The notes beneath the pieces were generated by a model. That model did not search any database and was not told where the DNA came from. It was given only the letters and a program-made list of their open reading frames with translations. A DNA stretch of 64,000 nucleotides from a virus. This document shows positions 6,903 through 64,000 of this stretch, in pieces; within the stretch, counting starts at the first letter, position 1, and every line of letters starts with the position of its first letter. The stretch covers positions 32,001 through 96,000 of IMG/VR virus record IMGVR_UViG_3300009514_000374. The stretch is one strand, 5' to 3'. Both the position numbers and the translations under genes were made by a program.

Positions 6903-7044
6903 GAAAACAGCGGATCCGTAGGTCCACAAGTCCAAGCTGGAAAGAGCCGAGAAATTCTGCGCATTTGGGCGGCGGTTTTCCACCCTTTCCCCAAGCTCCG
7001 GCCGCGAGGAATTTGGGGGCGATCTCCTTGCTCGGTGGCTGGAA

Positions 7045-7056
7045 TACTCGGGCTAT
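7045..7056 (+). promoter_or_regulatory. candidate late promoter TA-N6-CTAT
   Basis: TACTCGGGCTAT 20 nt before ATG 7077; the motif recurs at 5 other operon heads. Confidence 0.5.
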
Positions 7057-7076
7057 AGCTACCCCTGTGCGAGAGC

Positions 7077-8372: not shown

Positions 8373-8769
8373 ACCTTCGGCGCTTCGGGTTGCTCGGCTT
8401 TTCACAGCCCGTGCTGCCGAGGGCGACTGCTACGAGGCCGCCGCGAATTACATCGTGGAGCGCGGCCTTGGGCTATGGGGCGGCAAGGGCAAGCCCAAAT
8501 CAGGCTTGATTCTCGTCCATGGCGAGGTAGCGGGCCAAGGTCCGTTGGAGGGTGTCAATTTTGGGCACGCGTGGGTGCTCGACGGCAACACCGTGATCGA
8601 CAACTCCAATGGTCGGAACCTGCGGATGCCGAAATCCGCTTACTACGCGCTCGGCAAGATTGACGAGATCAACAATTTCCACGAGTACGATGTCGAGACG
8701 GCCCGACACATGCTGCTTCGGTTCAAGACCTACGGGCCGTGGGATCTGGAAACCTCGACAGGTCTGTGA
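8356..8769 (+). CDS. transglutaminase/papain-like Cys-His-Asp protein with RVARLF tag
   Basis: GDCYEAA, GHAWV, VID; GTG at 8356 with GGAG upstream. Confidence 0.65.
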   Translation: MPTASKPSALRVARLFTARAAEGDCYEAAANYIVERGLGLWGGKGKPKSGLILVHGEVAGQGPLEGVNFGHAWVLDGNTVIDNSNGRNLRMPKSAYYALGKIDEINNFHEYDVETARHMLLRFKTYGPWDLETSTGL

Positions 8770-9551: not shown

Positions 9552-10600
9552 GTCTCCGCAACAAAGCGATTAAGCTCGCCTACGAAAACCCCGAACTACG
9601 TGATGCGATCCTGCCGATCGTCACGGCCAAGGAGCACGCGACTGAGGACGCCCGCCGCAAGTACCTCCAAGAGCACCCCAAGGCTGATCCGGCGAAGCAC
9701 ACGATCAGGACCAAAAAGCCTCGCAAGAAAAAGGGGCCGTCTGAGAAGGACAAGGAAATCCTCAAGATCTTGGACGAGCACGACAAGGAGCAAGCCTTGC
9801 TCGCAGAAAAAGCCATCGCCGAAAGGGTGAAGGCTGAGCAGGCCAAATCGGACGAACGAGCCAAGGCTCGTGCGGAACGAGCCAAGGGGAAGGCGCCTCC
9901 GCATTTGGAGGGGCTGTCAAAGCACCTCCAAGACGCCGTGGGCAAGATGCCTACCAAGGGCATGGACAAGGAAGAAGCCTACAGCCACCCGAAGATCAAG
10001 GCGATGGCAAAGGCGCTGATGAAGCTCCCACGCGGAACCGTCGCTCGTATGTACGAGCAGCTACAAACTCGGATGCTTGAGCTTGGGCAGCCTGAGAAGC
10101 GCGGAGAACCGGGACGTGATGACGCCTTGAATCAGATTCATGCCGCGTGGCGTGCAACCAACGATGCCCTGTTCACGATGGGAGACGCACACAAGGAACG
10201 CGAAAAGGGCGAGGGCATGGGCAAATACCTTCCACGCGCTGAGTTGAAAAAGCGCCGCAAGGTTGAGCTAGATCTCGACCCCTTGAAAGACCTCCAGGGG
10301 CACAAGAAATCCGATCCGGTCTACAAGGTGCTCAAGGAGTACCGGAACGACGGAAAATACGTTCGGCTCAAGACGTTGGAGAAGGCGATCACGCATCTCG
10401 ACAAGATGCTCGACAACCCGGCTCACGACGGCGACGAGGACAAGATCGAGAAGGCCAAGAAGCTGCTTGAAAGGATCAATCGCGGAGGCCCCGAGTCTCG
10501 TCCGTCGAAAAAGGGCAGCCTTCGCAGCGGTCTGATCCGTCTGGCCCACGCTCGCCCTGACCTCCGTGATCGGCTGCTGCCTCTGCTCGCAAAGGACTAG
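9548..10600 (+). CDS. basic protein carrying LIRLAH-type tags at both termini
   Basis: MSLRNKAIKLAYENPELRDAILPI at the N-terminus and SLRSGLIRLAHARPDLRDRLLPLL at the C-terminus. Confidence 0.8.
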   Translation: MSLRNKAIKLAYENPELRDAILPIVTAKEHATEDARRKYLQEHPKADPAKHTIRTKKPRKKKGPSEKDKEILKILDEHDKEQALLAEKAIAERVKAEQAKSDERAKARAERAKGKAPPHLEGLSKHLQDAVGKMPTKGMDKEEAYSHPKIKAMAKALMKLPRGTVARMYEQLQTRMLELGQPEKRGEPGRDDALNQIHAAWRATNDALFTMGDAHKEREKGEGMGKYLPRAELKKRRKVELDLDPLKDLQGHKKSDPVYKVLKEYRNDGKYVRLKTLEKAITHLDKMLDNPAHDGDEDKIEKAKKLLERINRGGPESRPSKKGSLRSGLIRLAHARPDLRDRLLPLLAKD

Positions 10601-10603
10601 TTT

Positions 10604-12988
10604 GTGCCGACGATGCGAAAGATGGCCGCCCGTGTTGCGCGGCGGCACTTTCGCCGCGTAGCGGGCATCTTTGAGGCGCCTCCAAAGCTCGTCAAGGACG
10701 TAACCGAGCAGGTCACGCAGGTCTACGCGGAGCACATTTGGGCGAAGGCTGAGTATGAGATCCAAGAGCGCAACTCGGCCTATCATTGGGGTCAAAAACA
10801 GATCCGTGCGGCGATCAAGCAAGGGGAGGCCGAGGCGAAGGTCTTTTTGCAGGAAAACGACGCACAAGTGTTTATCGACGCCGGGTGGCACGAGATCGAT
10901 GAAAACAACGGCGAGTACACCACCCTTGCAGTGACCGCTGTCCCCATCGTTGAACGCGAGCAGAGTGGTCGCACAACGATCAAATGGGCTGCGGTTTGGG
11001 TGACGGGAAGGCGGACCTTCGGAGAACCTACGCCAGAAATCCCCGAGATGCCGGAGTACCCGAAGCTGCGGGACGAAGATTACGTTTACTACCCGTACCG
11101 AAGCGAGTATTCGACCGACGAAGAGTACGAACGAGCCCTTGCTGAACACCCCGGAAAAGTAAAAAGGTACGAGGAAAAGCAGAAGGCCCAAGAAGCGTGG
11201 CATGACCTCAAGGCACAGAACGATTGGGAATTCGAGCTTACGAGCTATGGCGGCTGGCAAGAGTTTGATACGCCAACTGCGGCCATCGTCGCGGCCAGGA
11301 ACAGTCCTATCAGGGGCGACAGCGAGGATTACAACACGGGCAGTCTGACTCAATCGGATATGTCGGCGGCAAAGGTCTTTGCGGAGATGGTCAAGGTAAC
11401 GCACGCGCGAGCACAGCGATACCTCAAGCGCGCTCGTGAGGCCATGAAGGACAAGCGAGCCGATGAAGCCTGGATGCAACGGATCGTGGATCTTAACCTC
11501 ACGATCAACGAGGCGAAAAAGTACGCCTCCATGCCCGATCGTAAATCTTGGACGATCGAACGCACGATCAAAGTAGACCTGACTGGTTGGAAATACGTCG
11601 ATGAAAAGCTCGGCGAATTGGAGAGCGAGTACGTCGAGGCTGCCGCGCACAACGAACGCGAATTGGAGGCGCTTGATCGTGACGTTCGTGCTCTGCGGGA
11701 AGATCAGATAACGAGAGTCTTTGAGTTCAAAAACGGGCCTCGCCGTAAACCGTGGAGGTTCCGAGTGGAGCGTGTATCGAAGGGCTACATGGAGGCTGAC
11801 AGGCGAAGGGGAGTTTACCTGATCTCGCACAACTACCACGGCTCTTGGACTACTGATGACTCCGCGACTCTTTCGCCCGAGAGGGTGCTCCGCGACATAC
11901 ACCGTGAGGTTCCAGCGCCCCTTTTGGACGAGGCCGCCAAACTACGCGAGTACAAACGTGGCAAGGTCTTGGCGGGGCAATCGATCAAGCTACGCATAGA
12001 CTTTGAAGGGCACCGCCGAGGTTGGGGAGGGTGGTGGAGCCCGCAGTCGAGGGAGATGAAGATCTTTTTCTATGACGAGAAGATCAAGCTCGACCCGGCC
12101 TCCTTCAAAGAAGCGATCTGGGAAATTCGGCGAATTTCTCGGCACGAGTCCCAACACGCTGGACAGACCATGCTCAATCATTGGCTTGAGCTTCACGTTT
12201 CCGGCTACAAGCCGGGTCTCCCGTCGCGTTCAACGTGGACCCCAAGCGTTGATCCGTGGGGGGCGGTTCGTCGTGAACGAGGAAAGCCAATCGTAGACCC
12301 GGAGACCGTTTACGAGGAATTCGGCAAAGACGAGGATTGGGAACAGGTCCACCATCACCACCGCGAGGTTGAGTTCTACACGAACCTTGCCGATGACATT
12401 GACAGGTTTGAGGCTACGCTGCGCAAAGTACCCAAGCCCTATTGGCCTGCTTATGCCCGCGTCGTTGTTGGCCTTGCTGAACCACAGCCCTTGAAGGATG
12501 AAATCGCCGAGCGTTACGGCTCCCAAAAATATCGTTTCCTGCAAGGCCCGACCACGGCTATGCCGGAGATGAACCGTGACTCGTTGGGCTGGCGCTTTCG
12601 CAGGTTCAAGCAAAAGAACAAGCCGAAATGGCGCAAGGCGGTCAAGGAATTCTACAACGAGCTTCGCAGGCGGGGGTATCGACTCCAAGGCGGCATCGTC
12701 CCCATGTCTCTCGACTACGTGAAGATCGAGGACGCGCTCAAAGAATGGCGTGATCGGTTCTATGACAAGACCGGCGTCTGGTATACGTGGCGTGACGTGC
12801 CCGGCGTGAATCTGCCCCCGAAAAAGCGTGTCGAGCAGGGGTGGATTTACGGGATGTTCGATGTGACCAATTTCGATCCTGACGAGTTGCACAGAGGCAA
12901 ACACGTCACACCTGACTCACCGAAGCCGGGGCGACAGCGGATCCGCGTCTTGGTTGGACCTACGGGCAAGGTCCAGAAGATCCGATAG
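10604..12988 (+). CDS. large protein with zincin-like HExxH metallopeptidase motif and N-terminal RVARRH tag
   Basis: RHESQHAGQ plus a downstream HREVEF candidate third ligand. Confidence 0.65.
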   Translation: MPTMRKMAARVARRHFRRVAGIFEAPPKLVKDVTEQVTQVYAEHIWAKAEYEIQERNSAYHWGQKQIRAAIKQGEAEAKVFLQENDAQVFIDAGWHEIDENNGEYTTLAVTAVPIVEREQSGRTTIKWAAVWVTGRRTFGEPTPEIPEMPEYPKLRDEDYVYYPYRSEYSTDEEYERALAEHPGKVKRYEEKQKAQEAWHDLKAQNDWEFELTSYGGWQEFDTPTAAIVAARNSPIRGDSEDYNTGSLTQSDMSAAKVFAEMVKVTHARAQRYLKRAREAMKDKRADEAWMQRIVDLNLTINEAKKYASMPDRKSWTIERTIKVDLTGWKYVDEKLGELESEYVEAAAHNERELEALDRDVRALREDQITRVFEFKNGPRRKPWRFRVERVSKGYMEADRRRGVYLISHNYHGSWTTDDSATLSPERVLRDIHREVPAPLLDEAAKLREYKRGKVLAGQSIKLRIDFEGHRRGWGGWWSPQSREMKIFFYDEKIKLDPASFKEAIWEIRRISRHESQHAGQTMLNHWLELHVSGYKPGLPSRSTWTPSVDPWGAVRRERGKPIVDPETVYEEFGKDEDWEQVHHHHREVEFYTNLADDIDRFEATLRKVPKPYWPAYARVVVGLAEPQPLKDEIAERYGSQKYRFLQGPTTAMPEMNRDSLGWRFRRFKQKNKPKWRKAVKEFYNELRRRGYRLQGGIVPMSLDYVKIEDALKEWRDRFYDKTGVWYTWRDVPGVNLPPKKRVEQGWIYGMFDVTNFDPDELHRGKHVTPDSPKPGRQRIRVLVGPTGKVQKIR

Positions 12989-48897: not shown

Positions 48898-49227
48898 GTG
48901 TCTCTACGCAAGAAACTGATTCGACTCGCTCACCAGAAACCTGAGCTTCGCCCTCACTTGCTGCCGCTGCTCAAGACGGCGATGTACGGCAAGGCGTGGA
49001 TCACGAATTTCAACCGGGCCACGAACATGCTGTGGGTCGGCGTGCAGGGCTACGACGGCATGGTTCGGATGTCGATCAGTGGATCGGGCATGGTCACGTC
49101 GCATGGGCGCCATCCCTCACAGGTGTCTCACAAAGCGCACCAGATCGTTTCCAAGTTTCGGAATGAAGGATTCCCTCGCATTCCACCGCACGGCCACTGG
49201 CCGCCCGAGGTGAAGCCGGACAAATGA
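48898..49227 (+). CDS. LIRLAH-tagged small protein
   Basis: MSLRKKLIRLAHQKPELRPHLLPLLKTA + ~80-aa domain. Confidence 0.75.
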   Translation: MSLRKKLIRLAHQKPELRPHLLPLLKTAMYGKAWITNFNRATNMLWVGVQGYDGMVRMSISGSGMVTSHGRHPSQVSHKAHQIVSKFRNEGFPRIPPHGHWPPEVKPDK

Positions 49228-50519
49228 CCAAGCAGGCATATTGGGAAGGGGTAGACCCCCTTCCCGGCGGCAACATGGACGAGGGCGACATCCACACTTG
49301 TCGGTCCCTGCTTGTCGATGTGCTCGCGTGCCTACGTGCTCAGTCGTGGAACTACCAGACGGCTCACTGGCAGACGGCCGGTGTGCCTGCCTACGGCAAC
49401 CACCTGCTCTTTGAGCGCCTCTACAAATCGGTTCAAGACGAGATCGATACGCTTGCGGAGAAGCTCGTTGGCTACTTTGGCCTCCATGCTGTTGACCCAT
49501 GCGACGTGATGGACAGGGCTCACAAGCTCGTCAAGCAGTGGAAGGCGTATTCGACCTGCCATGTCGAGCGTGGGCTCCACGCCGAGGAACATTTCCAATC
49601 GGGCGTGTCCAATGCGTACCACCAGATCAAGCAGAAGGGGCGCATGACCCTCGGGCTTGACGATTTTCTGATGGCGGCTGCGAACAACCACGAGTCGCAC
49701 ACGTACCTGCTCCAGCAGCTTCTCGTGGACATAAACAAGCTCAACGACGCCTACAAGGAGATGGGCGAGGCTCCGTACAAGGACATGACTCCGCCGTACA
49801 AGACGGCCACGCTGGAGGACGGCGTGGACTGGAGTGCGTGGAAGGGCCTCGATGGCAAGTGGAACATCGAGGGCGATGTGACCGCCGCTGAGTTGGAGCG
49901 CGTTGAGGGATTGATCAAGGCCGACCTTTCCGAAAAGTGCGGCACGCCGCACGGCGGGTGGGGTGGTGAGATGTCCTCGATGGAAAAATCGTGGGGAGGC
50001 TTCTCGTCCTTTCGTCCGGTGCGCCGTGGAGAGCGCGAGGATCAGATCCCTGGCGGTCTTGGCGACAAGGCCAAGACGGACGATTTTGATATTGAGCAAG
50101 TGCTGAAAGGAGTCGATGTCGAGCTTGAGCACACGACCGACCCTGACATCGCCCTGGAGATCGCACTTGATCATCTCACCGAGCACGACGACTACTACAC
50201 GCGACTGGAGAAGGTAGAGAAGCACGCGGCCATTGGTGACCGTGCTGCACCCTCTGTCGAATACTTGTTCCGCGACGATCCCAAGCGCTACGAGTTGACG
50301 GAATTCGTCAAATCGAAAGCCGTGACCAACCTCGACAATGACCCGGCGACACCGCCAACGCCCGTAGAGATCAAGGACGAGCCCGGAGGTAAGGCTCTCT
50401 CTACTTTGCATCGGTACGTGGTCGATACCGAGGAACCCGCTGCTAAGGATGCAGAGGGCATCGAGGAACACCCACCCCTGTCCGATTTCAAGGACTGGAC
50501 GACCGTGAGAGAGAAATAA
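49224..50519 (+). CDS. Dps/ferritin-like domain fused to a DUF5661-like domain
   Basis: AHW..AG.....H.LFE.LY......D.LAE Dps motif; G.DVELEH...IALDHL.E..DYY.RL. Confidence 0.7.
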   Translation: MTKQAYWEGVDPLPGGNMDEGDIHTCRSLLVDVLACLRAQSWNYQTAHWQTAGVPAYGNHLLFERLYKSVQDEIDTLAEKLVGYFGLHAVDPCDVMDRAHKLVKQWKAYSTCHVERGLHAEEHFQSGVSNAYHQIKQKGRMTLGLDDFLMAAANNHESHTYLLQQLLVDINKLNDAYKEMGEAPYKDMTPPYKTATLEDGVDWSAWKGLDGKWNIEGDVTAAELERVEGLIKADLSEKCGTPHGGWGGEMSSMEKSWGGFSSFRPVRRGEREDQIPGGLGDKAKTDDFDIEQVLKGVDVELEHTTDPDIALEIALDHLTEHDDYYTRLEKVEKHAAIGDRAAPSVEYLFRDDPKRYELTEFVKSKAVTNLDNDPATPPTPVEIKDEPGGKALSTLHRYVVDTEEPAAKDAEGIEEHPPLSDFKDWTTVREK

Positions 50520-52343: not shown

Positions 52344-54380
52344 ATGGGCCTTGGGCTTGGGAACATTGTCCTCGATGAAGGGCGCGATGCTGACAGCACC
52401 GCCGAAATCGCGGACATTATCACCTTCATCGAATCGGATTGGGGACTCGGCCAAACGCTGTTCCCGGTTCAGAAGGTGATCCTCAAGGCCCACTACGGCA
52501 TCCCTTTGGACGACGTGCCCGAGGGTATGGACGAGGGGCAGCTTGAGCTACTGGAGCACCACAAGTTGCTCAAGCTCGCGCAGGTCGAGAACCCTCTCAT
52601 TGACCCTACGGCCAACGAGAAATACCTGATCCGCTACATCCTGCGGAAACACATCCACGTCACGGATTTCCGCAAGCATCCCATCCCTGACGTGGCCGAG
52701 TGGATGTCCGAAGCCGAGTACCTTCGCCATCTGTACGCGGAAGGTCGGTCGAACATCGCCGAGGTAATCGAGGGGCAGGAGCGCCGGGAGATGATCCTGA
52801 GCGTTGGCCGTCGCTCGGGTAAGACGACCATCTCAGCCTGCATCGCTGCCTACGAGACATACAAGCTGCTCTCCAAGGGCAACCCACAGCAGTTCTATGG
52901 TCTGCCGGATGGCAACACGATCCAGTTGATCTCGGTCGCTACGGACAAGGACCAGGCGGGTCTGCTCTACCGCGACGTTGCCAAGTATTTCGCGCAGTGT
53001 GAATTCTTCCGCACCTATCAAGCCAACGCCACGCAGTCCTTTGCTCGTTTCCAGACGCCCTCGGACATCGAGCGTCACGGCCGGTACGCGGACAATCCTA
53101 ACGCTTCGGCCGCCTCGATCAACGTCACCTTCCGGTCTTGTATCGCTAAGGGACTCCGTGGTGCTGGTAACATCGTGATCATTCTTGACGAGGTTGCCCA
53201 CTTTACGGACGGCGGGCAGTCCTCGGCCGACGAGGTGTACCAAGCGGTCAAGCCCTCGCTGGCTGCCTTCACTGAAAAGAACCCCTACAACAAGGCCGAG
53301 CCCATCGGACCCGTCGAAGGACGGATGATCCTGATCTCGTCGCCGCTTGGCCGTCAGGGCAAATTCTACGAGCAGTTCCAGATCGCCATGAGAGGCGGCA
53401 AGGCGTCGCAGACGATGCTCGCCATCGAGGCACCAACGTGGGAGGTCAACCCGACCATCCCGGCTGAGTTCTTTGAGTCGGAGTACGTGAAGGACACCAA
53501 CATGTTCTTTACGGAGTACGGCGGCAAGTTCTCCGACCGTACTCTCGGCTGGATCGAGGACGCCCGCGACCTGCTCAACTGCGTGGACCCCAACCTCAAG
53601 CCTCGGACCCGTGGCCTTCCCCGTGCGCCCTATTTCATCGGGCTCGACGTTGGCCTCGTGAACGACGGCACGGCGGTTGCCATCGGCCACATTGAGCAGG
53701 AGAAGATCGTTCTCGACTACATCGATCAGATCAAGGCGGGCGAGGGCGAGTACGCCAACTACGAGCGCCTGGAATTTGAGGACGTGTCAAAATGGATCCA
53801 CGACCTCTCGCGGAAATTCCTGATCGATGAAGGCATGTTCGACCAGTGGGCGGGTATTCCGTTGGAGCAGGCGTTGCTCAAGAAGGGCCTGAAACAGATC
53901 AAGGCCACGCACTTTACTCAGGTGCTCAACAGCCAGGTCTTTCGGAATTTCAAGGACATGCTGTTCGACAGCCGCCTCGTTCTGTACGACTACACGGACG
54001 AGCAACGCGAGAAGCTGCGTGACAAAGAGGGCAAGGCACCGGACCACATGCCCTACTTGACCGAGCTATTGACGCTCCAGGCTGACTACCGGAGCAAGTA
54101 CGTCGTGAACGTGTCCGCGCCGAACATCGCCGGGGCACACGACGACCTTTCCGACGCGCTTGTACGCATGGTTTGGCTCGCCAGCCAAAAGCTCTCCAAC
54201 CGGGCGTACATCGCTGGACGGGGCCGACAGACCGGGCCGAACCGGCATCGGATCTCGGCGGGCAAGCAGCGGAAACAGATCCTCGCCTCCAAGAAGGGGG
54301 GCAGCATGGAGCAGCGGCAGCTACGTCGTGTAGGCCGGCAAGGTTTCATGCCTGTTCGTGGTGGAAGGCTCAAGGGGTGA
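52344..54380 (+). CDS. terL: terminase large subunit
   Basis: Q motif, GRRSGKT, IILDE, ISSP, IGLDVG, FDQW, HDDLSDA. Confidence 0.92.
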   Translation: MGLGLGNIVLDEGRDADSTAEIADIITFIESDWGLGQTLFPVQKVILKAHYGIPLDDVPEGMDEGQLELLEHHKLLKLAQVENPLIDPTANEKYLIRYILRKHIHVTDFRKHPIPDVAEWMSEAEYLRHLYAEGRSNIAEVIEGQERREMILSVGRRSGKTTISACIAAYETYKLLSKGNPQQFYGLPDGNTIQLISVATDKDQAGLLYRDVAKYFAQCEFFRTYQANATQSFARFQTPSDIERHGRYADNPNASAASINVTFRSCIAKGLRGAGNIVIILDEVAHFTDGGQSSADEVYQAVKPSLAAFTEKNPYNKAEPIGPVEGRMILISSPLGRQGKFYEQFQIAMRGGKASQTMLAIEAPTWEVNPTIPAEFFESEYVKDTNMFFTEYGGKFSDRTLGWIEDARDLLNCVDPNLKPRTRGLPRAPYFIGLDVGLVNDGTAVAIGHIEQEKIVLDYIDQIKAGEGEYANYERLEFEDVSKWIHDLSRKFLIDEGMFDQWAGIPLEQALLKKGLKQIKATHFTQVLNSQVFRNFKDMLFDSRLVLYDYTDEQREKLRDKEGKAPDHMPYLTELLTLQADYRSKYVVNVSAPNIAGAHDDLSDALVRMVWLASQKLSNRAYIAGRGRQTGPNRHRISAGKQRKQILASKKGGSMEQRQLRRVGRQGFMPVRGGRLKG

Positions 54381-54642: not shown

Positions 54643-54987
54643 ATGCCGAAAGGACCGCAGACCGAGGAACGTGCTGAGCGTCAGGCGAGGGACCAGGAGA
54701 TCCGTCTTGCCGCGCAGGCACGGGAAAACATCGAGATGCACAAAGCGGCTGACGCGCATCTCGACGTGGCTGCGGCGGCGCTACGCAACGCCCTAAGATC
54801 GCTCCAGAACGTCCGTGTGGCGCGTCGTACTGCGGAAGGCCAGGTGCTCAAACGCAAGCTCAGGGCCGTTGAGCAGGCTGCTGCGGCTCTCAAGCCCATC
54901 GGAAGGGATGCTGGCCGGGTTCGGGCGACCGGGCCGGACTATTCCGACCCCGATTTGTCTATGGGAGGGCCAGGGGTGAATGGCTAA
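54643..54987 (+). CDS. hypothetical helical protein
   Basis: ORF overlapping the portal start. Confidence 0.6.
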   Translation: MPKGPQTEERAERQARDQEIRLAAQARENIEMHKAADAHLDVAAAALRNALRSLQNVRVARRTAEGQVLKRKLRAVEQAAAALKPIGRDAGRVRATGPDYSDPDLSMGGPGVNG

Positions 54988-56980
54988 GAAACGCCAAAAG
55001 CGGCGTCGAAAGACCGCTCCACGGCGCTATATCGCCGGATCGGGGGACATCCCCAAGAACGAGGACGCCCAAACGGTTGCCAGCGTGCCGGACAAGCATA
55101 AGCGGCCTCAGTTGTCGGTTGGCAAGCCGCAGCCGATCGTCCTTGGGTCGATGCGATCCAAGGTGGCGAATATCGGCGCAGGCGGATCGGGTTTCGGGGG
55201 CGGTGGGATCGGAGGACCCGGATCGGGTAACACGGGTGCTTTCGGATCCGGGCTTGGTTCGGTTGGCGGCTCGGCGATCGGAAGCGGCGGGAATTTCTAC
55301 TCGCCCGAGCTTTCGACCGATTTCCTTGAGCTACCGCAGAGCCTAGACGAGCAGCGTAACTACTTTCGGTTTTTCTACCGCGCTGACCCGTTCGTCGGGC
55401 AGGCGATGGACATTCACCGCGAGCTTCCGCTGTCGAAGATCCGGCTTGGTCGCCCCGAGGCCAAGGACAAGGATCTTGCTCAGCAGTCGCTCGATTTCTG
55501 CAAGCGGTGGACGAAGATCGTTGGGCTGCTCCAACGGCTGTCGGAAGGGCTGCACGAGTACAACGTCATTGGCGAAACGCACTGGTTCATCGAGGACGAC
55601 AACCCCGATATGCCGGAGGACGTTCGATACGAGATCAAGAACATTCTCCACGAGGATGGCAACTTGGAGGAGACCAAGGAGCTTTGGCCGGACGCGGACG
55701 AGCGCGCCTCCGCGTGGATGAAAAAGAACTACAAGGGGTGGACGCAGGTTCGCATCCTTCCGCCTGAGCAGATTCACATGGACTCGTTCCCGATGTCGGA
55801 CGAGATCCTGGTATCGCTCATTCCCGACTCCAAGACTAAGAGTGTGATCGAGCAGGCCGACCAGGGTGACCAGCGTGCGGTCAAGGTCATGGAGTCGATG
55901 CCGCCTGACATCGTGATGGCGGTGCGGCACGGCGAGAACGTCCCGCTCAATACGGACCCAGACGCAGGGTCGTTCTACTACTACATGGCGAACAAGGTGA
56001 GCCAGTACGAGCCGCGAGGGCACTCTCGGCTTGAACGGTGTATCCGTACCCTCGTCTACAAGGACAAGCTGCGCCAGGCGCAGACCTCCATCTCGTCGCG
56101 GCACATGACGCCTATCCGGCTCGTGTACGCCGAGAACATGAACGAAGCGGACACCGAGGCGCTGCGTGATCAGATCGACCTCGCGCTCCAAGACCCCGAC
56201 TACTCGATCGTCACCAACTTTCAGGTGACGTGGGAGGAAATGACGCCGCAAGGGCGTCTGCTGGAGCTTTCGTCCGAGTACGACCTGATCAACCGGGAGC
56301 TTTATGCGGGTCTTGGAGTGACAGAGAGCCTGCTCTCAGGTGAGTCGAGCTACAGCGGCGATCGGATCAACCTGGAGGTGATCAACGTCCGCTACATGCT
56401 CGTCCGTGAGTTCCTACAGGATTTCGTGGAGAAGAACCTGTTTGAGCCGATGTGTCGGCGCATGGGGTTCATCGAGACGGACGATTGGGGCAACGATGTC
56501 GTCGTTTGCCCGAAGCTCTCGTTCACGAGGCTGGCCCTCCGCGACAACCAGGACGTGTACGACGCCCTGTTCAACCTCTACCAGAAGGGCTCGTTGCCGA
56601 TTAGCGTGATCTACGACCTGCTCAACGTGGATGGGGAGGGTGCGACCGAGGAATTGCAACGCGATTTCGCCACGTTCAAGGACCCCACCTACAACGAGGT
56701 ACTGCGTGGCCTGTACTCGCAGGCGGGGACCAAGCTCGGCGACCAGTCGAATTTCGTGGAGAAGCAGGCCGAATACCTCGGACTGGACTACAAAGAGGAA
56801 GCCGAGGGGATGCAGCGGTTCGGATCGCAACAGGCGCCCTCGCAGCCCCAAGGTCAGCCCGCCGGGATGGACGTGTTGGCTTCTCTCGTGGCTGAGCGGA
56901 TCGCCGGCCAGGTCGCCGATTTGGTCGCCGACAAGATCGTGGAAAAGCTACAAAAGCGGTCTCCTGAGAGCACCGAGTAG
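54980..56980 (+). CDS. portal protein
   Basis: FY..DP.V..A.D, RG.S.L, LYAGLGV...L.G...YS, size and position after terL. Confidence 0.8.
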   Translation: MAKKRQKRRRKTAPRRYIAGSGDIPKNEDAQTVASVPDKHKRPQLSVGKPQPIVLGSMRSKVANIGAGGSGFGGGGIGGPGSGNTGAFGSGLGSVGGSAIGSGGNFYSPELSTDFLELPQSLDEQRNYFRFFYRADPFVGQAMDIHRELPLSKIRLGRPEAKDKDLAQQSLDFCKRWTKIVGLLQRLSEGLHEYNVIGETHWFIEDDNPDMPEDVRYEIKNILHEDGNLEETKELWPDADERASAWMKKNYKGWTQVRILPPEQIHMDSFPMSDEILVSLIPDSKTKSVIEQADQGDQRAVKVMESMPPDIVMAVRHGENVPLNTDPDAGSFYYYMANKVSQYEPRGHSRLERCIRTLVYKDKLRQAQTSISSRHMTPIRLVYAENMNEADTEALRDQIDLALQDPDYSIVTNFQVTWEEMTPQGRLLELSSEYDLINRELYAGLGVTESLLSGESSYSGDRINLEVINVRYMLVREFLQDFVEKNLFEPMCRRMGFIETDDWGNDVVVCPKLSFTRLALRDNQDVYDALFNLYQKGSLPISVIYDLLNVDGEGATEELQRDFATFKDPTYNEVLRGLYSQAGTKLGDQSNFVEKQAEYLGLDYKEEAEGMQRFGSQQAPSQPQGQPAGMDVLASLVAERIAGQVADLVADKIVEKLQKRSPESTE

Positions 56981-56996: not shown

Positions 56997-57008
56997 TATT
57001 CGGGCTAT
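56997..57008 (+). promoter_or_regulatory. candidate late promoter TA-N6-CTAT
   Basis: TATTCGGGCTAT 22 nt before ATG 57031. Confidence 0.5.
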
Positions 57009-57030
57009 GGGCGTGCCTCTAGCGAAGGCT

Positions 57031-60000
57031 ATGGCCCACAAGCCCACAAAGGCGCGGACAGCGTACACCGTCGAACCCACTGAGGGTGGCGTTGTGATCT
57101 GGCCCGAGAATCGGATCGAGCAGGCGTTTATCGACACGTTTGCCGCTCGGGTTGCGGGTCAGAGGCTTGGCGTGGCGAAGGGTCACAATATCGACCTGTC
57201 CGAAGATCCAATTCACCCGGACGAGGACGACGAGGACGAGTGGAAGGTGGACGAGGAACCGATGTCCATGGGGCATTCGGAGCTTCCCGGCGCCGAGGGC
57301 CGGACGGCGCGGGACTGGACCGCGCCAGGCAGAATCCTCGGCTTTAAGATCCGGTACGACGCCGAAAATGTAATGAGCCACCATCCCATCGTGATGGCCT
57401 TCGACGGGGAGACGGAGATTGGTTTCGTTGAGTTGGTCATGCTCGATGACCCTCCCTCTCATTGCGAGGACGAGTGGACTGAGGTTAGGGACGAGTTGGA
57501 ACGACGGGGTGCCCTTGGTGTCTACACCTACGCGGTAGTGGAGTCCTGGCTGGCGGACGAGTATCACCACAACCGTATCGGGGTGGGGATGTACGAGGCG
57601 GCGATGGCTGCTCTGTCAGACCCCCAGGAGCCAGTCATCCTGGTTGCGAGTCGGTGCAGAGGCGGCCCTACGAGCCATCAAGCGAGTCGTGTGTGGGAGT
57701 CCATGGCGCGTCGCTACGTGTCCTCGGGACAGGTTGTTTCGTCCGTTCCCAAGGCCAAAGCTCGGGTGGCGAATGTGGCTCGCCGCTTCATGGCGAAGGC
57801 GACGGGCACCCGTGCCGGCGACGGCTCCAGCGTGGGGTTGTTCATCCGCCTGCCGAAGCACCTGGCGACGCAATTCCCTGGCCTCGGAGAGAACGACTCG
57901 TCTCCAAGCCACGTCACGTTTCTCTACATCGGGGATTTCAAGGACAAGGACGAGCAGGCCCGGTTGGTCGTCACTCTGCGCGACATCCTTCGACGCTGGT
58001 GGCCCAAGTGTAAGGCAAGCCTCGGTGACCTGGAGTATTTCGACCACCCCGACAAGAACCGCCGCGTCCCGCATGTGTCCGTCGATTTCGACAAGGATCT
58101 GTCGGGGTTCAAGCAGCGGGTCATGCAGGAGCTTCGGGACGAGGGCTTTGAGGTCGGTGACAAGTTCCCCGAGTTCAAGCCACACGTCACGCTCGCGTAC
58201 ATGCCAGGCATGGACGGGGAGTGGGACAAGCCCGTGCCAGAAGGCTCGTGGGATGTCACTGAGATGGAGATATGGGGGATGCCCCGCGTACACACGATTC
58301 CAATTGGCAAAGCGTCGAGTCAACGAGTGGCTTCTTTGTGGCTTGAGGGGAGCACCCACGCGAAATCGGTTGCTTTGATGCGGTTCCTGTCCCGATTGGC
58401 TCAGCGTCTCGGGGTTGCCCGTCACACCTACGTCGTTGGCGGGGCCATTCGGAATTTCCTGATCGAGCAACCGATCAAGGACATCGACGTAGTGATCGAC
58501 TCGGTTGCTGCGGGCAAGGATTCCGAGTGGTTTGCCGAGCAGGTTGCGCGTGCCATTCCGGCGCCAACAAACCTGACGACGAACCAGTACGGCGTTGCCA
58601 TCCTGACCGTGAAGGGGGATTGGGATCTGGACGGCGAAAGCCTCAAGGGCGAGGTGATCGAAATCGCCAACGCTCGCAAGGAGAGCTACGGCGGTGCGGA
58701 GGGTAAGGGCTACAAACCACACATGGTTGAGCCGACAACCATTGACGAGGATGTCTACCGGCGCGAATTCACGTTCAACTGCATGGGAGGGGATACTCTG
58801 ATTCCCACCAAGCGGGGTATCCTTCGCATTGATGAGATCGCGTCTCGTGAGAACGGGGACCGGCAAGATATTCATTTGACAGTGGCGGGACAGGACGGTC
58901 CTTCGGAGGCTGTGGGATGGCAGTACAGCGGGTACGCGCCGACTCTGCGGGTGACCTCCGAGTGGGGACACACCTTCACCTGCACCCACCACCACCCCGT
59001 TCTGGTTCTGCGGGGGCATGACCATGAGTGGGTTCAGGCAGATCAGCTTGCAGAGGGCGACCTGCTTTGCGTGCCCGTGCGGCAGGTGTCGAGGCGAGAC
59101 CCTCTCGCTTTGGATTTGCCTGACCCGGTGCAGCCCAAGAGGGGCAGGCTCAAGGGTGCTCGGAAGCCTGAGATAATGACGCCGGAGTTGGCGTTTTTGA
59201 TCGGGTGTGTGGTGGCAGAGGGTTCCAACACCCACAAGCGGGTGTCTTTCAGTAACTCCGACCCCAATCTCATTTCCCGCTACGCCGAGTGCTTCCACGC
59301 CACTTTTGGATTTCTCCCCTCCCGTAATAAGGTGGTGAGCAAAGGCTCTGTCCGTGTCCTACGGGGGGTGGAATTTGTCGCCAACCATGACGGCTACGAC
59401 ATTTACGCCGACAGTAAAGCAGTGGTGGGCTGGTTGGAAGACCTCGGCTTGTACTGCGGAGGCTCCAAGGACGGGAAATCCGCTTCCCATCACAAGGTTG
59501 TTCCGTGGTCGATCCTACAAGCGGACGCGCGTAGCCAGTGGGCGTTTCTTGCGGCTTATCTTGAAGGGGACGGATCTATCCGGCCGGATACCGGGCGCAT
59601 CACATACTGTTCGGCCTCCCCGAAAGTGCGTCAACAGTTGCAGGTGCTCCTGGGAGCGCACGGCATCTTGAGCAAGGTGAAGGATAGGTTTGTCTACCTT
59701 AGCGCCGTGGATTCGGCTCTCTTGTGGGAGAAGGTTCGCCCGTGGATGGTTACCAAGGGGTTCGACTACACGCGAGACAGCAAGTCCCGTAACCGTTACG
59801 GAATTCCCGCAGATCACATCCGGGGGTTTCTTGCGGGCCGTAAACAAGCTCGTTCCGTGTACGCCACGGACGAGGGCGGGCTCCGGTCCCTTCCAGACGC
59901 TCACGAGCCTGTCCGTAAGGTTCAGCGGCTTCTACACGACGCCTACGCTCGGGGAGATTTCGACGGGCTCCTGTCGAGTCTCAAGATCATTAGCGGAGAC

Positions 60001-60888
60001 GAACACGCCAAGCTACAGCGGTTGTTTGACCTGGGCTACCAGTATGTCGAGGTTGCGTCAGTTGAAGATGCTGGAGATCAGGACGTATTCGACATTTCGA
60101 TGGGTGAGGGGGTAGAGCCCGCTTTTGTGGCGAACGGTGTGGTGGTTCACAACACGCTCATGTGGCGGTTGCTGGACCTGACCCACGGACCCGAGAAGGC
60201 CGAGGTAATCGACCTGACCGGCTGTGGTCGCCGGGATCTGGAGCAGGGCGTTCTCAAATGCCCGCGTGACCCCGACATCGTGTTCGCGGACGACGCGACT
60301 CGTATCCTTCGGGCGATCAAATTCACCGGCAAGTACGGATTCAAGATCCCGCCTGACCTGGCCGCCGCGATCAAGCGCAACGCTCCGAAGATGAAGCAGA
60401 TGCCCTACGAGGCGTTGAAAGACATCCTCGTGGATAACATCTTGCCCGAGCCGACCGCTCGCAAATCGCTCCAGCAGATGAAGGATCTCGGCATCCTCGA
60501 TGTGCTGCACGACATGATTCAGGAGCAGAAGCCGTTTGCTTCGGCCATCGCCAAGGTGCTCGGTCGGGAGCGTCGGGTTCAGGTTCTACTCGACTGGCTG
60601 CATCTTGGCCTGCCCGCCAAGACCCCGCTGCATTTCCTTGGGGCGCATGAGCGAGTCCGAGTCCGCGAGATCACGGTTCCGATGGACGAGGACAAGGCGA
60701 CTGATTGGATGCACCGGCTGATCAAGCCTCCGGTCAACAATAACGAGGTCATCGAAGCTCACTCGCTCGTTGGGCGGGACCGCGCGATGATCATGCCGCT
60801 TGCTCGCAAGCTGATTCTCGTAGACCCCGACCTCGCCTACGACGGCCGCGCCCTGACGCGCGAGGTGATTGAAAGGTGGGTGCGGTGA
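57031..60888 (+). CDS. polyprotein: GNAT-like + 2H phosphoesterase + CCA/poly(A)-type nucleotidyltransferase (intein-containing)
   Basis: GNAT-like ~57330-57745; HVTF/HVTL 2H motifs ~57830-58305; VGGAIRN, DID, EIA, RREFTFN|TL, DDATRILRA; alternative start 57007. Confidence 0.85.
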   Translation: MAHKPTKARTAYTVEPTEGGVVIWPENRIEQAFIDTFAARVAGQRLGVAKGHNIDLSEDPIHPDEDDEDEWKVDEEPMSMGHSELPGAEGRTARDWTAPGRILGFKIRYDAENVMSHHPIVMAFDGETEIGFVELVMLDDPPSHCEDEWTEVRDELERRGALGVYTYAVVESWLADEYHHNRIGVGMYEAAMAALSDPQEPVILVASRCRGGPTSHQASRVWESMARRYVSSGQVVSSVPKAKARVANVARRFMAKATGTRAGDGSSVGLFIRLPKHLATQFPGLGENDSSPSHVTFLYIGDFKDKDEQARLVVTLRDILRRWWPKCKASLGDLEYFDHPDKNRRVPHVSVDFDKDLSGFKQRVMQELRDEGFEVGDKFPEFKPHVTLAYMPGMDGEWDKPVPEGSWDVTEMEIWGMPRVHTIPIGKASSQRVASLWLEGSTHAKSVALMRFLSRLAQRLGVARHTYVVGGAIRNFLIEQPIKDIDVVIDSVAAGKDSEWFAEQVARAIPAPTNLTTNQYGVAILTVKGDWDLDGESLKGEVIEIANARKESYGGAEGKGYKPHMVEPTTIDEDVYRREFTFNCMGGDTLIPTKRGILRIDEIASRENGDRQDIHLTVAGQDGPSEAVGWQYSGYAPTLRVTSEWGHTFTCTHHHPVLVLRGHDHEWVQADQLAEGDLLCVPVRQVSRRDPLALDLPDPVQPKRGRLKGARKPEIMTPELAFLIGCVVAEGSNTHKRVSFSNSDPNLISRYAECFHATFGFLPSRNKVVSKGSVRVLRGVEFVANHDGYDIYADSKAVVGWLEDLGLYCGGSKDGKSASHHKVVPWSILQADARSQWAFLAAYLEGDGSIRPDTGRITYCSASPKVRQQLQVLLGAHGILSKVKDRFVYLSAVDSALLWEKVRPWMVTKGFDYTRDSKSRNRYGIPADHIRGFLAGRKQARSVYATDEGGLRSLPDAHEPVRKVQRLLHDAYARGDFDGLLSSLKIISGDEHAKLQRLFDLGYQYVEVASVEDAGDQDVFDISMGEGVEPAFVANGVVVHNTLMWRLLDLTHGPEKAEVIDLTGCGRRDLEQGVLKCPRDPDIVFADDATRILRAIKFTGKYGFKIPPDLAAAIKRNAPKMKQMPYEALKDILVDNILPEPTARKSLQQMKDLGILDVLHDMIQEQKPFASAIAKVLGRERRVQVLLDWLHLGLPAKTPLHFLGAHERVRVREITVPMDEDKATDWMHRLIKPPVNNNEVIEAHSLVGRDRAMIMPLARKLILVDPDLAYDGRALTREVIERWVR
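58780..60153 (+). mobile_element. 458-aa intein with LAGLIDADG homing endonuclease
   Basis: Starts CMGGDT; block B TCTHHHP; LIGCVVAEG and FLAAYLEGDG; block F VFDI; ends VVHN followed by Thr(+1). Confidence 0.92.
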
Positions 60889-61970
60889 AGCCATCGGCAA
60901 ACCGCGTCGCGTCGCTCCACCGCGCTGGCTATTTCAGCGTCGGCGACCTGATCTTGTTTGGAAAGTACAAGAACAAGAAGGGCAAGATCGTCGGGTTTGG
61001 CCGCACGGAAAAGAACGTGCCTACGGTCATTGTCGAACCCATCCCCAAGGGCCGCAAAAAGAACAAGGAGATCGGCCTGTTCAAGATCTGGCATGGCGTG
61101 CCTGAGAAGCGTGCGATGACGATGGAGGCTCGTGTAGCTCACCGCTATGCTTTTGAGCACCCAAGCGAGAAGGCTCGCCAGCAGTACCTCAAAGATCACC
61201 CCGGAGCCGATCCTAAGAAGCACCATGTCAAGGGGCCGTCGAAGCCGAGCAAGGTCAAGAGTCTCGTAGATCGGGCGCTCGCCAAGGTGAAGGGCGCGAA
61301 GGACCACATGGTCGCTGCGGTTCGTGCGGCCCCGGCCGAGGTTCACTCGTTCCTGTTCGACAAGGCCCATCGGAACAAGCGGACCAAGGAGCTTGCCGCG
61401 AAGCTCAAGGAGAACGCACCCAAGGCTAAGAAGGCTCTGTTCAGCGCCCTCAAGCGCGAGCTTTCGTCGTTCCCGAAAGCGGGGGCCATCCTCAAGCGGG
61501 TCGCAACGGGAGGCAAGCTCCAAAAGGGCGATGTCAAGACCCTCTATGGTGTCGGCGTCTACATCGCGGGCACTGTTCTTGGCGCGATGTCGGGAGGGGC
61601 TGCGGGCGCGGCTTTGTTTGGGGCCTCCAAGGCGCTCCTGCACAGCCTCAGTTTGCACGCTTCGATCAAGGCAGTCAGCCATCTCGCCGACGAGGGGTTC
61701 CTTGGCTACGAGGCGGTGGAGAGTGGCGCGATGGCGACGGGCCTGGCCGATGCGTTGCCGGTGAACACGAGTGACCTGCCTGGCTTGGGCAAGGTGTTTG
61801 ACGTGCTCAAAGAGGTGGTCACAGCAGCCGACGAGAAGGACGACGAATACCTGCGCAAGTTTGTTGAGGCCATGTACGACGACATTGTGAAGCAACTGGA
61901 GCAGGGCATCAGCGACGCTGACATTCGGGACGTTCTCGTTCACGGGGTTCAGCCAAAGGGGGCCGCATGA
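60885..61970 (+). CDS. tagged multidomain protein (SH3/KOW-like + hydrophobic Gly/Ala segment)
   Basis: RVASLH and RVAHRY tags; VGD.ILFGKYKNKKGKI; GVGVYIAGTVLGAMSGGAAGAALFG. Confidence 0.7.
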   Translation: MKPSANRVASLHRAGYFSVGDLILFGKYKNKKGKIVGFGRTEKNVPTVIVEPIPKGRKKNKEIGLFKIWHGVPEKRAMTMEARVAHRYAFEHPSEKARQQYLKDHPGADPKKHHVKGPSKPSKVKSLVDRALAKVKGAKDHMVAAVRAAPAEVHSFLFDKAHRNKRTKELAAKLKENAPKAKKALFSALKRELSSFPKAGAILKRVATGGKLQKGDVKTLYGVGVYIAGTVLGAMSGGAAGAALFGASKALLHSLSLHASIKAVSHLADEGFLGYEAVESGAMATGLADALPVNTSDLPGLGKVFDVLKEVVTAADEKDDEYLRKFVEAMYDDIVKQLEQGISDADIRDVLVHGVQPKGAA

Positions 61971-64000
61971 GCGCAGCACGCATCGCCGCCCTTCACATGG
62001 CGAAGGCCAGGTACAAGGACAAAAAGGTCGTCAAGGACTCGGACGGGAAGGATATGACCGTGTACGAGTACAGTGACCGCCAGGTTTCCAAGCGGAACAA
62101 CGACAAGGCCGATCGTGTGCAGAAGCTCCGGTCCCTTCGATCCGATCTCGTGAAGCGGGTCAAGAAGGACTACAAGGCCAAGGATCTCAAGACGCGGCTC
62201 ACGGCGTTGGCCGTGGGTTTGATCGACCATACCTACGAGCGTGTTGGCAACGACGAGAGTGCGGGCGAAGGCCACTTTGGCGTGACCGGCTGGCTCGTCA
62301 AGCATGTCTCGTTCTCGGGCGGCAAGGCGACGATCCGGTACGTCGGTAAGAGTGCAGTCAAGCAGACCAAGGTCGTGACTGATCCGGGGGCGGTCAAGCT
62401 GCTCAAAGAAGCGGTCAAGGGCAAGAGCCCCGGCGATCAGATCTTCACCTGCGACGACGCGGGCGAGAAGGTGTGCGTGACCTCGGCCGAGGTCAATGCC
62501 TACCTGCCGGAAGGGATCACGGCAAAGGATCTACGAGGGCTTCACGCGAACGAGGAAATGCTCGTCAAGCTCAAGGCGCAGCGTAAGGGTCCGCTCCCGA
62601 GTGACAAGAAAAAGCGCGAAAAGAAGCTCAAGGACGAATTCAAGCGGGCGCTGGAGGAAACGGCCAAGGTGGTCGGCCACGAGCCGAGCACGCTCCGTAG
62701 CCAGTACCTCGTCCCTGCGATGGAGGACGCCTACATGAAGGACGGCACGGTGATCGACAAGCTCAACGAAAAACGCTCGTCGCTGGAGGCCGCGTGGGAT
62801 CACTTGGCGACCAAGACGGACGAGGAAAAGAAGGACGAGGACGCTGATAAGAACGTCCGCAAGGACCCGAAAAAGAAGCCTCCGCGCTACGACCTCCGTG
62901 ACAACAAGATTCACGATCCTGATCTCAATGGGGATCCCGACATGAAGGACGAGGCCAAGGCCGACAAGGACCCTGATCTCTCCCTCAACTACAAGCGAGT
63001 TGCGCGACGGTTCTTTGCGCGCAAGACCTCACCTACGGAATCCGGCGCCAAGGCGCTGTGGGAGCGGCACAAGCAAAAGAGCCCCGGCACCAAGCTCAAT
63101 TGGCAGGATTTCTTTGAGCGCAAGGACAAGGGCACCATCCAAGAGGTTCGGGACGCGATCAAGCCCAAGGACAAGCCCAAAGACGAGCCCGCGAAGCCCA
63201 AGAAGCCCAAGGCCCCGGAGGACGAGGGCGAGGCTAAGGAGAAGCCCGAGGACGAGGACAAGGCCAAGAAGAAGCCCGCCGAAGGCGAGGCGCCCACTGA
63301 GGATCCGCAGGCTGAGCAAGCCGCCAAGGAGAAGGAGCACAAGGAGCGTGTTCAGAGTGCCGTGACCGATTCGGCGCAGGCATACGACTCCGTGTTCGGC
63401 GGAGGCCGTGTCCAGGTTCCCCGCGAGGTAAGCCGATACCTTCCCCAAGCCCTCTCCAACATGACGCCGGAGCAGGTCGAGAGTTTCAACCAGGCCACGC
63501 AACAGCGCGCTCAGGCGATGCAGAACGAGGGTTTGCGTGGTGAAAATGTGGTCGAACGGGCTGAACGGACGCTGGATGACTACAGCGACGAGCAGATCGA
63601 GAACATCTCTGATCCAGCACGGCTGGCACAGGTAGTTGCTGATCTTACGTTCTCCGAGCACGTCCTGTCCCTCGACAAGAAGCGGCAAAAAGGCGTGAAG
63701 CGGGCGCTTAGCAAAGCGTTCGACCAGATCGAGAAGCAGTTGCAAAAGGAAACCAAGGACGGGCGGTACCGCCTGCCTTCGGAAATTCGACGCACGATCT
63801 CAGACCAGATGGGGAGCTTGGAGCCCGATCAGATCCAACAGTTCGTCCAGGGCGTGACGGAAAACCTGGCGGACAATGCGACCAAGTACGACGACAGCGA
63901 TGAATCTGTCGAGCGCGCCCAAGGTGATCTTGAGGAATTCTCCGAGCTAATCGAGGGAGTTTCGGATCCGAATGTGATGGCGCAAGAGGTCGCTTCGCAG
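61967..64000 (+). CDS. topoisomerase IB catalytic domain fused to a long C-terminal region (3'-truncated; missing from the ORF track)
   Basis: ATG 61967, open to the window end; RVGN, GK, KDLR, GH, catalytic Tyr (SQYL, codon 62705-62707). Confidence 0.85.
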   Translation, partial: MSAARIAALHMAKARYKDKKVVKDSDGKDMTVYEYSDRQVSKRNNDKADRVQKLRSLRSDLVKRVKKDYKAKDLKTRLTALAVGLIDHTYERVGNDESAGEGHFGVTGWLVKHVSFSGGKATIRYVGKSAVKQTKVVTDPGAVKLLKEAVKGKSPGDQIFTCDDAGEKVCVTSAEVNAYLPEGITAKDLRGLHANEEMLVKLKAQRKGPLPSDKKKREKKLKDEFKRALEETAKVVGHEPSTLRSQYLVPAMEDAYMKDGTVIDKLNEKRSSLEAAWDHLATKTDEEKKDEDADKNVRKDPKKKPPRYDLRDNKIHDPDLNGDPDMKDEAKADKDPDLSLNYKRVARRFFARKTSPTESGAKALWERHKQKSPGTKLNWQDFFERKDKGTIQEVRDAIKPKDKPKDEPAKPKKPKAPEDEGEAKEKPEDEDKAKKKPAEGEAPTEDPQAEQAAKEKEHKERVQSAVTDSAQAYDSVFGGGRVQVPREVSRYLPQALSNMTPEQVESFNQATQQRAQAMQNEGLRGENVVERAERTLDDYSDEQIENISDPARLAQVVADLTFSEHVLSLDKKRQKGVKRALSKAFDQIEKQLQKETKDGRYRLPSEIRRTISDQMGSLEPDQIQQFVQGVTENLADNATKYDDSDESVERAQGDLEEFSELIEGVSDPNVMAQEVASQ

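Follow-up and report, generated by a model that had tools for sequence, protein, structure and literature searches.

Phage polyvalent proteins with a 2H phosphoesterase domain near or fused to the portal or MuF protein are predicted to be packaged, injected and perhaps processed into units, packaging and injection being predicted, not shown (Iyer, Burroughs, Anand, de Souza and Aravind 2017, PMC5512222). 2H, GNAT, InPase and ART-PolyVal domains occur among polyvalent proteins; Pol-beta nucleotidyltransferases were found in the 2017 survey only as minimal versions in proteins of conjugative elements, and 2H domains never with RNA ligases (PMC5512222). CCA-adding and 2H enzymes are also described as RNA-repair parts of jumbo phages, and phages rich in tRNAs are predicted to use their tRNA nucleotidyltransferases to maintain or repair these (Iyer et al. 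2021, PMC7824862). Here we describe P0001, a protein of 1293 residues encoded in a 64,000-nucleotide stretch of viral DNA (the window; bases 32001-96000 of the 141,007-bp IMG/VR viral contig IMGVR_UViG_3300009514_000374), which joins a GNAT-like module, a 2H phosphoesterase and a CCA-type nucleotidyltransferase split by an intein in one chain. A preliminary description had recognized three enzyme domains separated by tags, and this outline holds: the domains are GNAT-like, 2H and class II nucleotidyltransferase, with short RVA tags at their borders.

P0001 shares with the polyvalent proteins of Iyer 2017 its several unrelated catalytic domains (at least two), the shuffled architectures of its relatives and a position near the virion genes of portal-terminase phages, and by these features of sequence it can be classed among them, as a mosaic of known kinds of polyvalent phage protein in a new combination. 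It differs in that a full class II tRNA nucleotidyltransferase forms the conserved core of these head-locus polyproteins, in that relatives join this core to RNA ligase, HAD_SAK_1, PAP2 or topoisomerase IB domains, and in that RVA-type tags bound the modules and an intein recurs. A further difference is that no metallopeptidase domain was seen in P0001.

The 'Swiss Army Knife' proteins are reportedly modular RNA-end repair proteins, as the Pfam text for PF10307 also has it. The likeness to P0001 lies in this modular logic, and one relative (P0058) combines the transferase with HAD_SAK_1 (42.5 bits) and 2H; however, neither P0001 nor the 141-kb record, about 30% of the genome, contains HAD_SAK_1 (PF10307), RNA ligase (PF09414) or RtcB (PF01139), and a head locus, tags and an intein are found instead. 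The E. coli Cca enzyme with its HD domain (NF008137) is likewise a class II CCA-type transferase fused to a phosphoesterase, the HD domain of which is said to process 2',3'-cyclic or phosphorylated ends. The phosphoesterase of P0001 is an N-terminal 2H rather than a C-terminal HD domain, and at 37.6 bits against a cut-off of 451 the protein is not a member of that equivalog.

Domain composition of P0001

The open reading frame (ORF) at 57007-60888 on the + strand has no internal stop under translation table 11 and is a real feature of a contig with a G+C content of about 60% that CheckV estimates to be about 30% complete, and which is thus a fragment of a huge phage. The preliminary description had started the same frame at 57031, which is Met9; we prefer the upstream Met1 at 57007, as the closest relative, L008, shares the conserved residues 1-9 (MG..LAKAMA). 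An alternative genetic code, with the 'tags' as TAG codons, was ruled out, since the frame is open under table 11 and reading TAG as Q alters nothing here. The parts of the gene are as follows.

57007..60888, + strand: whole gene of the polyvalent protein P0001, stop codon included (1293 residues, single open frame, table 11)
57007..57336, + strand: N-terminal leader, residues 1-110, which includes an acidic stretch and, at residues 45-53, the tag-like FAARVAGQR
57346..57756, + strand: divergent GNAT-fold module, residues ~114-250 (family profile, AlphaFold2 (AF2) model and Foldseek)
57763..57789, + strand: inter-domain tag 1, RVANVARRF, residues 253-261 (the L008 equivalent is VSRRFMAKATG)
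57832..58311, + strand: LigT-type 2H phosphoesterase, residues ~276-435 (PF13563, 29.0 bits against a cut-off of 27)
57910-57918 and 58183-58191, + strand: HxT motifs (HVT), residues 302-304 and 393-395, invariant in 15 homologs
58324..58344, + strand: inter-domain tag 2, RVASLWL, residues 440-446, conserved at the 2H end in most of 15 homologs
58372..58779, + strand: N-extein of the nucleotidyltransferase, residues 456-591, with GGAIRN, DID, the third carboxylate in EIANAR, and RREFTFN
58780..60153, + strand: intein with LAGLIDADG homing endonuclease, residues 592-1049 (458 residues; PF14890, PF14528)
60154..60885, + strand: C-extein of the nucleotidyltransferase, residues 1050-1293, with the motif C region GCGRRDL, motif D DDATRILRAIKF and an RNA-binding neck, body and tail

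The transferase head matches PF01743 (PolyA_pol head) at 43.7 bits against a cut-off of 23 over residues 474-593, a match shortened by the intein; the intein-less relative P0008 covers positions 1-126 of the 126 in that model. PF12627 (PolyA_pol_RNAbd) scores 20.6 bits, just below its cut-off of 22, TIGR01942, TIGR02692 and PRK13299 match in part over residues 1061-1181, and the best PDB sequence matches, aligned across motifs A-D, are the A. aeolicus A-adding enzyme and bacterial CCA enzymes. Measured against the reference motifs GGxVRD plus DxD (A), RRDxTxN (B) and EDxxR (D), the protein has kept the DxD of catalysis and, within motif D (DDATR), the D and R used in templating. Together, the PF01743 score and these motifs assign it to the class II (CCA/poly(A)) nucleotidyltransferase superfamily. 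Once spliced, the transferase would measure about 380 residues, and its stand-alone relatives measure 378-410. The segment YGVAILTV is FGT-like, and the loop between motifs A and B is as long as in A-adding and CCA-adding enzymes. GRRF, reportedly a signature of proteobacterial poly(A) polymerases, is absent from the transferase sequence. An HD domain is missing too, as had been described; CCA enzymes other than the proteobacterial ones normally have none.

Residues 1-600, used in a word-seeded search, retrieved 171 long proteins, the best 120 of which were analysed; in 116 of these 120 relatives the transferase head is 54-80% identical. RRE in place of RRD and DDATR in place of EDxxR had earlier been read as a possible sign of unusual specificity. 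The variants are present as described, but they run through the family (GGxxRN in 101 of 116, RRE in 109 of 113 and DDxxR in 72 of 73, some relatives having RRD) and so define a clade and give no sign of a special specificity in P0001; the changes themselves, D to N, D to E and E to D, are conservative.

The transferase is interrupted by an intein that is matched by PF14890 (42.9 bits, cut-off 35.8) and PF14528 (50.9 bits, cut-off 22.5) and that has C1, T-x-x-H (residues 658-664), LAGLIDADG stretches at residues 728-740 and 847-857 with acidic residues, and a terminal HN, so that the residues for splicing are intact. Its +1 residue is T1050, and motif B is split between RREFTFN and this T. Intein-less alleles read RREFTFNTLMWRL across the junction, the insertion being exactly in frame; thus L008, L010, L018 and L019, which have no intein, read ...RREFTFNTL(M/L)WRL..., equal to the predicted spliced product, and L010 is identical across the junction. 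An intein at motif B was found in 15 of the 120 relatives, with the same insertion site in all 11 that have readable junction motifs. The G+C at third codon positions is lower in the intein (0.68) than in the exteins (0.75-0.79), and the closest inteins in deposited phages, at 31% identity, are TerL inteins of Xanthomonas phages. The mycobacteriophage 'NT' inteins (PMC5050341) were considered as the same allele and rejected, as no mycobacteriophage matched the intein or its site. Among relatives inspected for their TerL and portal ORFs (L002:3321-6608, L023:3102-6569 and L027:2260-5532), the TerL gene of L002 (1095 residues) also contains an intein, and some portal ORFs are about 1100 rather than about 600 residues long, which suggests inteins or fused cargo in the portal.

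For the 2H domain, the AF2 model (predicted local distance difference test, pLDDT, 85) has as its best Foldseek matches the 2',3'-cyclic phosphodiesterase (CPDase) of D. radiodurans (5h7e), E. coli LigT (4qak), 1vdx from P. horikoshii and 1iuh from T. thermophilus, with E values of 3e-6 to 8e-5 and template modelling (TM) scores of 0.5-0.63. Its HxT motifs, its PF13563 score and its modelled fold all identify the domain as LigT-like. It thus shares the 2H fold and two HxT motifs with the bacterial RNA 2',3'-cyclic phosphodiesterases LigT/ThpR and CPDase, its best structural matches, and differs from them in an identity of only 15-18% and in being embedded in a polyprotein; it does not reach the TIGR02258 equivalog cut-off (27.6 against 65.7 bits), and phmmer against PDB sequences gave a chance match only. 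An affinity to Acb1, raised in the preliminary description, is not supported by the fold comparison, in which LigT and CPDase came out on top and no Acb1 entry stood among the top 50 PDB matches. P0001 has no match to PF23474 (Acb1), for which one relative, P0012, reaches 16.6 bits where the cut-off is 27. Further down the list of folds come viral 2',5'-phosphodiesterases (4ye2, 5af2), a phage phosphodiesterase (9q2y) and the poxvirus cGAMP phosphodiesterase.

The GNAT-like module of P0001 has no Pfam match of its own at E <= 0.1, and its affiliation comes from its family. An exhaustive HMMER search collected 56 relatives of the module, many of them stand-alone proteins of 140-170 residues; PF00583 is matched by 16 of 26 aligned members (best E 9e-8), and in the PDB the family profile finds only GNAT enzymes. 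In the AF2 model (pLDDT 91.8), the leading Foldseek matches are all GNAT, at modest TM scores of 0.35-0.47, and include the ICL2 acetyl-CoA domain, aminoglycoside acetyltransferases, TacT and TmcA. By its modelled fold the module belongs to the GNAT superfamily, whereas its CoA loop and its own Pfam result do not place it there. The idea that it forms part of a repair kit fared less well than the domain call itself: the module is missing from the closest relatives, L008 and L009, and occurs in 7 of the 120 related polyproteins at other positions, which points to an independent, exchangeable passenger. The family has two near-invariant cysteines and the signature C-x-GG-x-TS...A-x-RVW-x-SL, and is poorly covered by Pfam. 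Many of its stand-alone members start or end with RVA-type tags.

Tags of this kind are not confined to P0001. The pattern [RK][VI]A.[RL][FYWH] occurs 13 times in the 150 ORFs of this phage, whereas shuffled proteins give 0.98 +/- 0.98, with no more than 5 in any of 500 shuffles, so that the enrichment is about 13-fold. Most copies lie at most 40 residues from the N-terminus, at the C-terminus or between domains, in unrelated proteins; examples are at genome positions 3036, 12148, 39077, 40739, 42604, 93967 and 136103. The tag is a candidate cargo-address or protease-site signal. The N-terminal leader of P0001 is conserved in its nearest relatives only (48% in L008 and L009, 59% in P0136 over residues 1-96), and a family-profile search gave it no family match. 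A search for a leader shared by every polyprotein encoded after a portal found none, the N-termini varying among loci, and the N-terminal 278 residues matched nothing among PDB sequences and in the ESM Atlas.

Relatives, architectures and the head locus

Across the 120 long relatives, the transferase core is accompanied by 2H in 63, on either side of it, a fraction that is biased upward as the word search was seeded with both domains. Other partners are HAD_SAK_1, PAP2, InPase (PF18823), RNA ligase, topoisomerase IB (TopoIB), DUF5661, ART-PolyVal, Fic, C39 peptidase, iron superoxide dismutase (Fe-SOD) and GNAT. When IMG/VR was scanned without this bias, by the transferase head alone, 37 loci came up on contigs of up to 497 kb, and two further ones bring the total to 39. 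About 20 of the 39 show the order TerL, portal, 0-5 ORFs, transferase protein, TopoIB protein, and 16 of these carry 2H. In four loci (L010, L018, L027 and L028) the 2H, transferase, unk364-like and TopoIB segments form one ORF of 2094-2531 residues; in the present phage, three overlapping ORFs take the place of this giant. That P0001 directly follows the portal, as first described, was confirmed by the phrog match of the preceding ORF. The neighbouring genes are listed below.

52344-54380: TerL, preceding the portal
54980..56980, + strand: portal protein (phrog_16240, 1.2e-26)
60876..61970, + strand: 364-residue ORF (unk364), overlapping its neighbours by 13 nt and 4 nt, with the tag EARVAHRY
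61967..64000, + strand: start of the 1322-residue TopoIB protein (PF01028, 81 bits), which continues beyond the window to genome position 97935 (L005:1967-5935)
After the TopoIB protein: head maturation (prohead) protease, genome 98501-99955 (phrog_18299, 1.9e-10)
Between the head maturation protease and the major head protein: 430-residue ORF
After the 430-residue ORF: major head protein (phrog_2522, 2e-49)

The order of head genes (TerL, portal, P0001, unk364, the TopoIB giant, head maturation protease, 430-residue ORF, major head protein) thus puts P0001 in the slot between portal and prohead protease, the usual place of genes for minor or internal head proteins. The 364-residue protein has no family match in family-profile searches, and its segments are internal to the fused giants in L018, L019, L027 and L028. 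The first ~250 residues of the 1322-residue protein are a topoisomerase IB catalytic core of eukaryote/poxvirus type, no family was matched by the remaining ~1000, and RVA tags stand at residues 5 and 344.

Elsewhere on the contig, outside the window, 20 tRNA genes are clustered at genome positions 258-11502 (L006; Asn, Glu, Arg, Ser x4, Gly x3, Ala x3, Trp, Cys, Gln x3), and the 141 kb holds one 2H and one class II transferase only. At 49224-50519 a 431-residue protein combines a ferritin-like/DUF5856 N-terminus with DUF5661, a domain that is also fused to the transferase in many relatives. Directly after the major head protein, an 830-residue protein (L005:11119-13611, genome 103119-105611) has an N6/N4 DNA methylase segment together with a helix-turn-helix and a LAGLIDADG_2 endonuclease of the free-standing kind, which may mean that a homing endonuclease or an intein has entered a methylase gene.

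Outside IMG/VR, no near-identical DNA was found in deposited phages, and the whole protein searched by tblastn against phages gave intein matches only. The transferase part alone matches deposited phage genomes at up to 34% identity, and no 2H fusion or head-locus position was found among these matches. They come from Bacillus phage G (gp522), Aeromonas phage CC2, Cellulophaga phages, a cluster C mycobacteriophage and huge uncultured phages. The stand-alone tRNA nucleotidyltransferases of large phages, such as those of phage G, CC2 and cluster C mycobacteriophages, belong to the same superfamily and differ in having the transferase part only, without the fusion or the position. By TerL the nearest deposited genome is that of a 485-kb uncultured phage (LR745208.1, 55%), and Tunturiibacter phage Tunturi_5 is at 28%; LR745208.1 has a TopoIB-like gene after its portal and no transferase in that region.

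A proposed role in tRNA 3'-end repair

We propose that P0001 is a polyvalent enzyme for the healing and rebuilding of tRNA 3' ends and that it is probably loaded into the capsid, a reading to which we assign a probability of roughly one half. Self-splicing of the intein would yield a complete class II tRNA nucleotidyltransferase of about 380 residues behind the 2H and GNAT modules. The 2H domain would open the 2',3'-cyclic phosphate ends made by metal-independent host RNases, and the transferase would re-add missing C, C and A both to host tRNAs and to the phage's own 20 or more, so that the pair would parallel the HD-plus-CCA 'addition/repair' enzyme of E. coli with 2H replacing HD; the GNAT module would be a separate, exchangeable passenger. 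Loaded into the capsid, and perhaps cut at its tags by the prohead protease, the protein could be delivered with the DNA and act before phage genes are expressed. Capsid loading is suggested by the position of the gene between portal and prohead protease, by the RVA tags that it has in common with about a dozen unrelated phage proteins, and by the fusion of the protein into giants of 2,000-2,500 residues in its relatives. What the sequences themselves establish are the identities of the domains, intact catalytic motifs, the intein, the synteny, the shuffling of modules and the enrichment of tags; the substrates, CCA specificity, the cleavage of tags, packaging and the injection proposed in the preliminary description are all predictions of this model.

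The same description had already suggested that 2H and transferase could act as a tRNA-end repair pair, or else be independent counter-defence cargo. In favour of this, both domain calls hold and the linkage recurs (63 of 120 relatives; 16 of the 20 portal-linked loci), though copies away from the portal have no 2H within 10 kb. Its suggestion that a further phosphatase may be needed fits well with the relatives that add HAD_SAK_1 or PAP2.

Several observations weigh against this proposal. The remaining loci mostly encode a stand-alone transferase of 378-410 residues, with no portal or 2H detected within 10 kb. In a maximum-likelihood tree of 28 transferase domains, which has a midpoint root only and leaves out duplicates and rows with a tail match under 150 residues, portal-linked and other copies interleave, at least three switches being forced by well-supported branches; hence the pairing is not obligatory. 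Packaging is suggested by gene position and tags only, and activity in tRNA-end repair is itself predicted. Enzymes of LigT type leave a 2'-phosphate, so a phosphatase step may have to come from elsewhere, and no phosphatase, RNA ligase or RtcB was found in P0001 or the 141-kb fragment. The transferase would not be needed to mature most of the phage tRNAs, since 17 of the 20 tRNA genes encode their 3' CCA. When TIGR02692, PRK13299, PRK10885, TIGR01942 and PRK11623 were scored against P0001 and its intein-less or stand-alone relatives, the CCA and PcnB models of NCBIfam tied at 64-104 bits with cut-offs of 290-702, and so did not separate CCA from A-only or poly(A) specificity; CCA addition is the specificity that we would predict. 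In the GNAT module, the CoA loop is degenerate (H-H-N-R-I-G, that is H-x-x-R-x-G, as against R/Q-x-x-G-x-G/A), relatives having R-G-K-G-V-G, and GNAT activity is for this reason uncertain. The cyclic ends opened by 2H would be created by metal-independent RNases only; Cas12a3, as a RuvC nuclease, would leave none.

The free shuffling of the modules, with 2H on either side of the transferase and also in company with Fic, ART, SOD and C39, could be expected if they were independent counter-defence effectors that merely share a vehicle, the 2H degrading cyclic or 2'-5' immune signals in the manner of Acb1 and viral 2',5'-phosphodiesterases, the GNAT module modifying a host protein and the transferase being unrelated to either. 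We consider this explanation unlikely. It draws further strength from the absence of the GNAT module from the closest relative, from the viral, phage and poxvirus phosphodiesterases lower in the 2H fold list (4ye2, 5af2, 9q2y and the cGAMP enzyme), and from Iyer et al. 2017, who proposed such a role for phage polyvalent 2H domains (PMC5512222). However, the top folds are RNA-end CPDases and LigT and not Acb1, the Pfam family of which reaches 16.6 bits against 27 in one relative; moreover, 2H abuts the transferase in many relatives, and HAD_SAK_1, PAP2, RNA ligase and pyrophosphatase make up a coherent end-healing set.

A phage with at least 20 tRNAs, three of them without a genomic CCA, might also employ such a protein as a cytoplasmic housekeeping enzyme that completes or maintains the CCA ends of its tRNA set, those three included, made late and unpackaged, with the position and the tags meaning something else. 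Close stand-alone transferases of about 390 residues are indeed encoded far from head genes, and stand-alone tRNA nucleotidyltransferases such as gp522 of Bacillus phage G are common in large phages. We judge this account distinctly doubtful, as about 20 loci have the gene in this same place between portal and prohead protease, the giants fuse the transferase to topoisomerase IB and other non-tRNA enzymes, and the tags at termini and junctions are common to unrelated proteins. Very improbable, finally, is a role in host shutoff, in which the transferase, as a poly(A) polymerase or another enzyme that adds something other than CCA, would tail host RNAs to target them for decay or would keep tRNAs from being charged. 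The pcnB subfamily model is nominally the best NCBIfam match (70-91 bits), the family-wide changes in motifs A, B and D could alter specificity and nucleotidyltransferase toxins that extend tRNA ends exist (MenT). On the other side, CCA models score equally with all models far under their cut-offs, the motifs change conservatively (D/N, D/E, E/D), enzymes that add A or CCA to tRNA are the top sequence matches in the PDB, GRRF, the reported signature, is absent and the partner domains are end-healing enzymes.

If the proposal of a capsid-loaded tRNA-repair enzyme is true, tRNA 3'-end repair would be a virion-delivered counter-defence and not only a function of early genes. The question is timely, given the recent description of immune nucleases that cleave the CCA tails of tRNAs, Cas12a3 among them, in a report that also cites a HEPN tRNase (PMC12851939). 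Extending the proposal, we tentatively suggest, as a conjecture with the odds against it, that huge phages pre-load a tRNA-tail repair kit in which RVA peptides are the cargo-address or protease-cut signals, and that 2H, CCA-type enzymes, TopoIB and other cargo enter with the DNA and, ahead of any phage gene expression, neutralise immunity that clips tRNA 3' ends (HEPN tRNases or Cas12a3-like nucleases). The tags and the nearby prohead protease provide a testable model of cargo loading for huge phages, and the intein at motif B represents a new, recurrent insertion site in a tRNA-processing enzyme. Even should the repair reading prove wrong, the gene would illustrate clearly how huge phages encode polyvalent proteins, and its family of more than 115 members, with a transferase head 58-86% identical in widely varied architectures, is a natural experiment on which enzymes are useful together.

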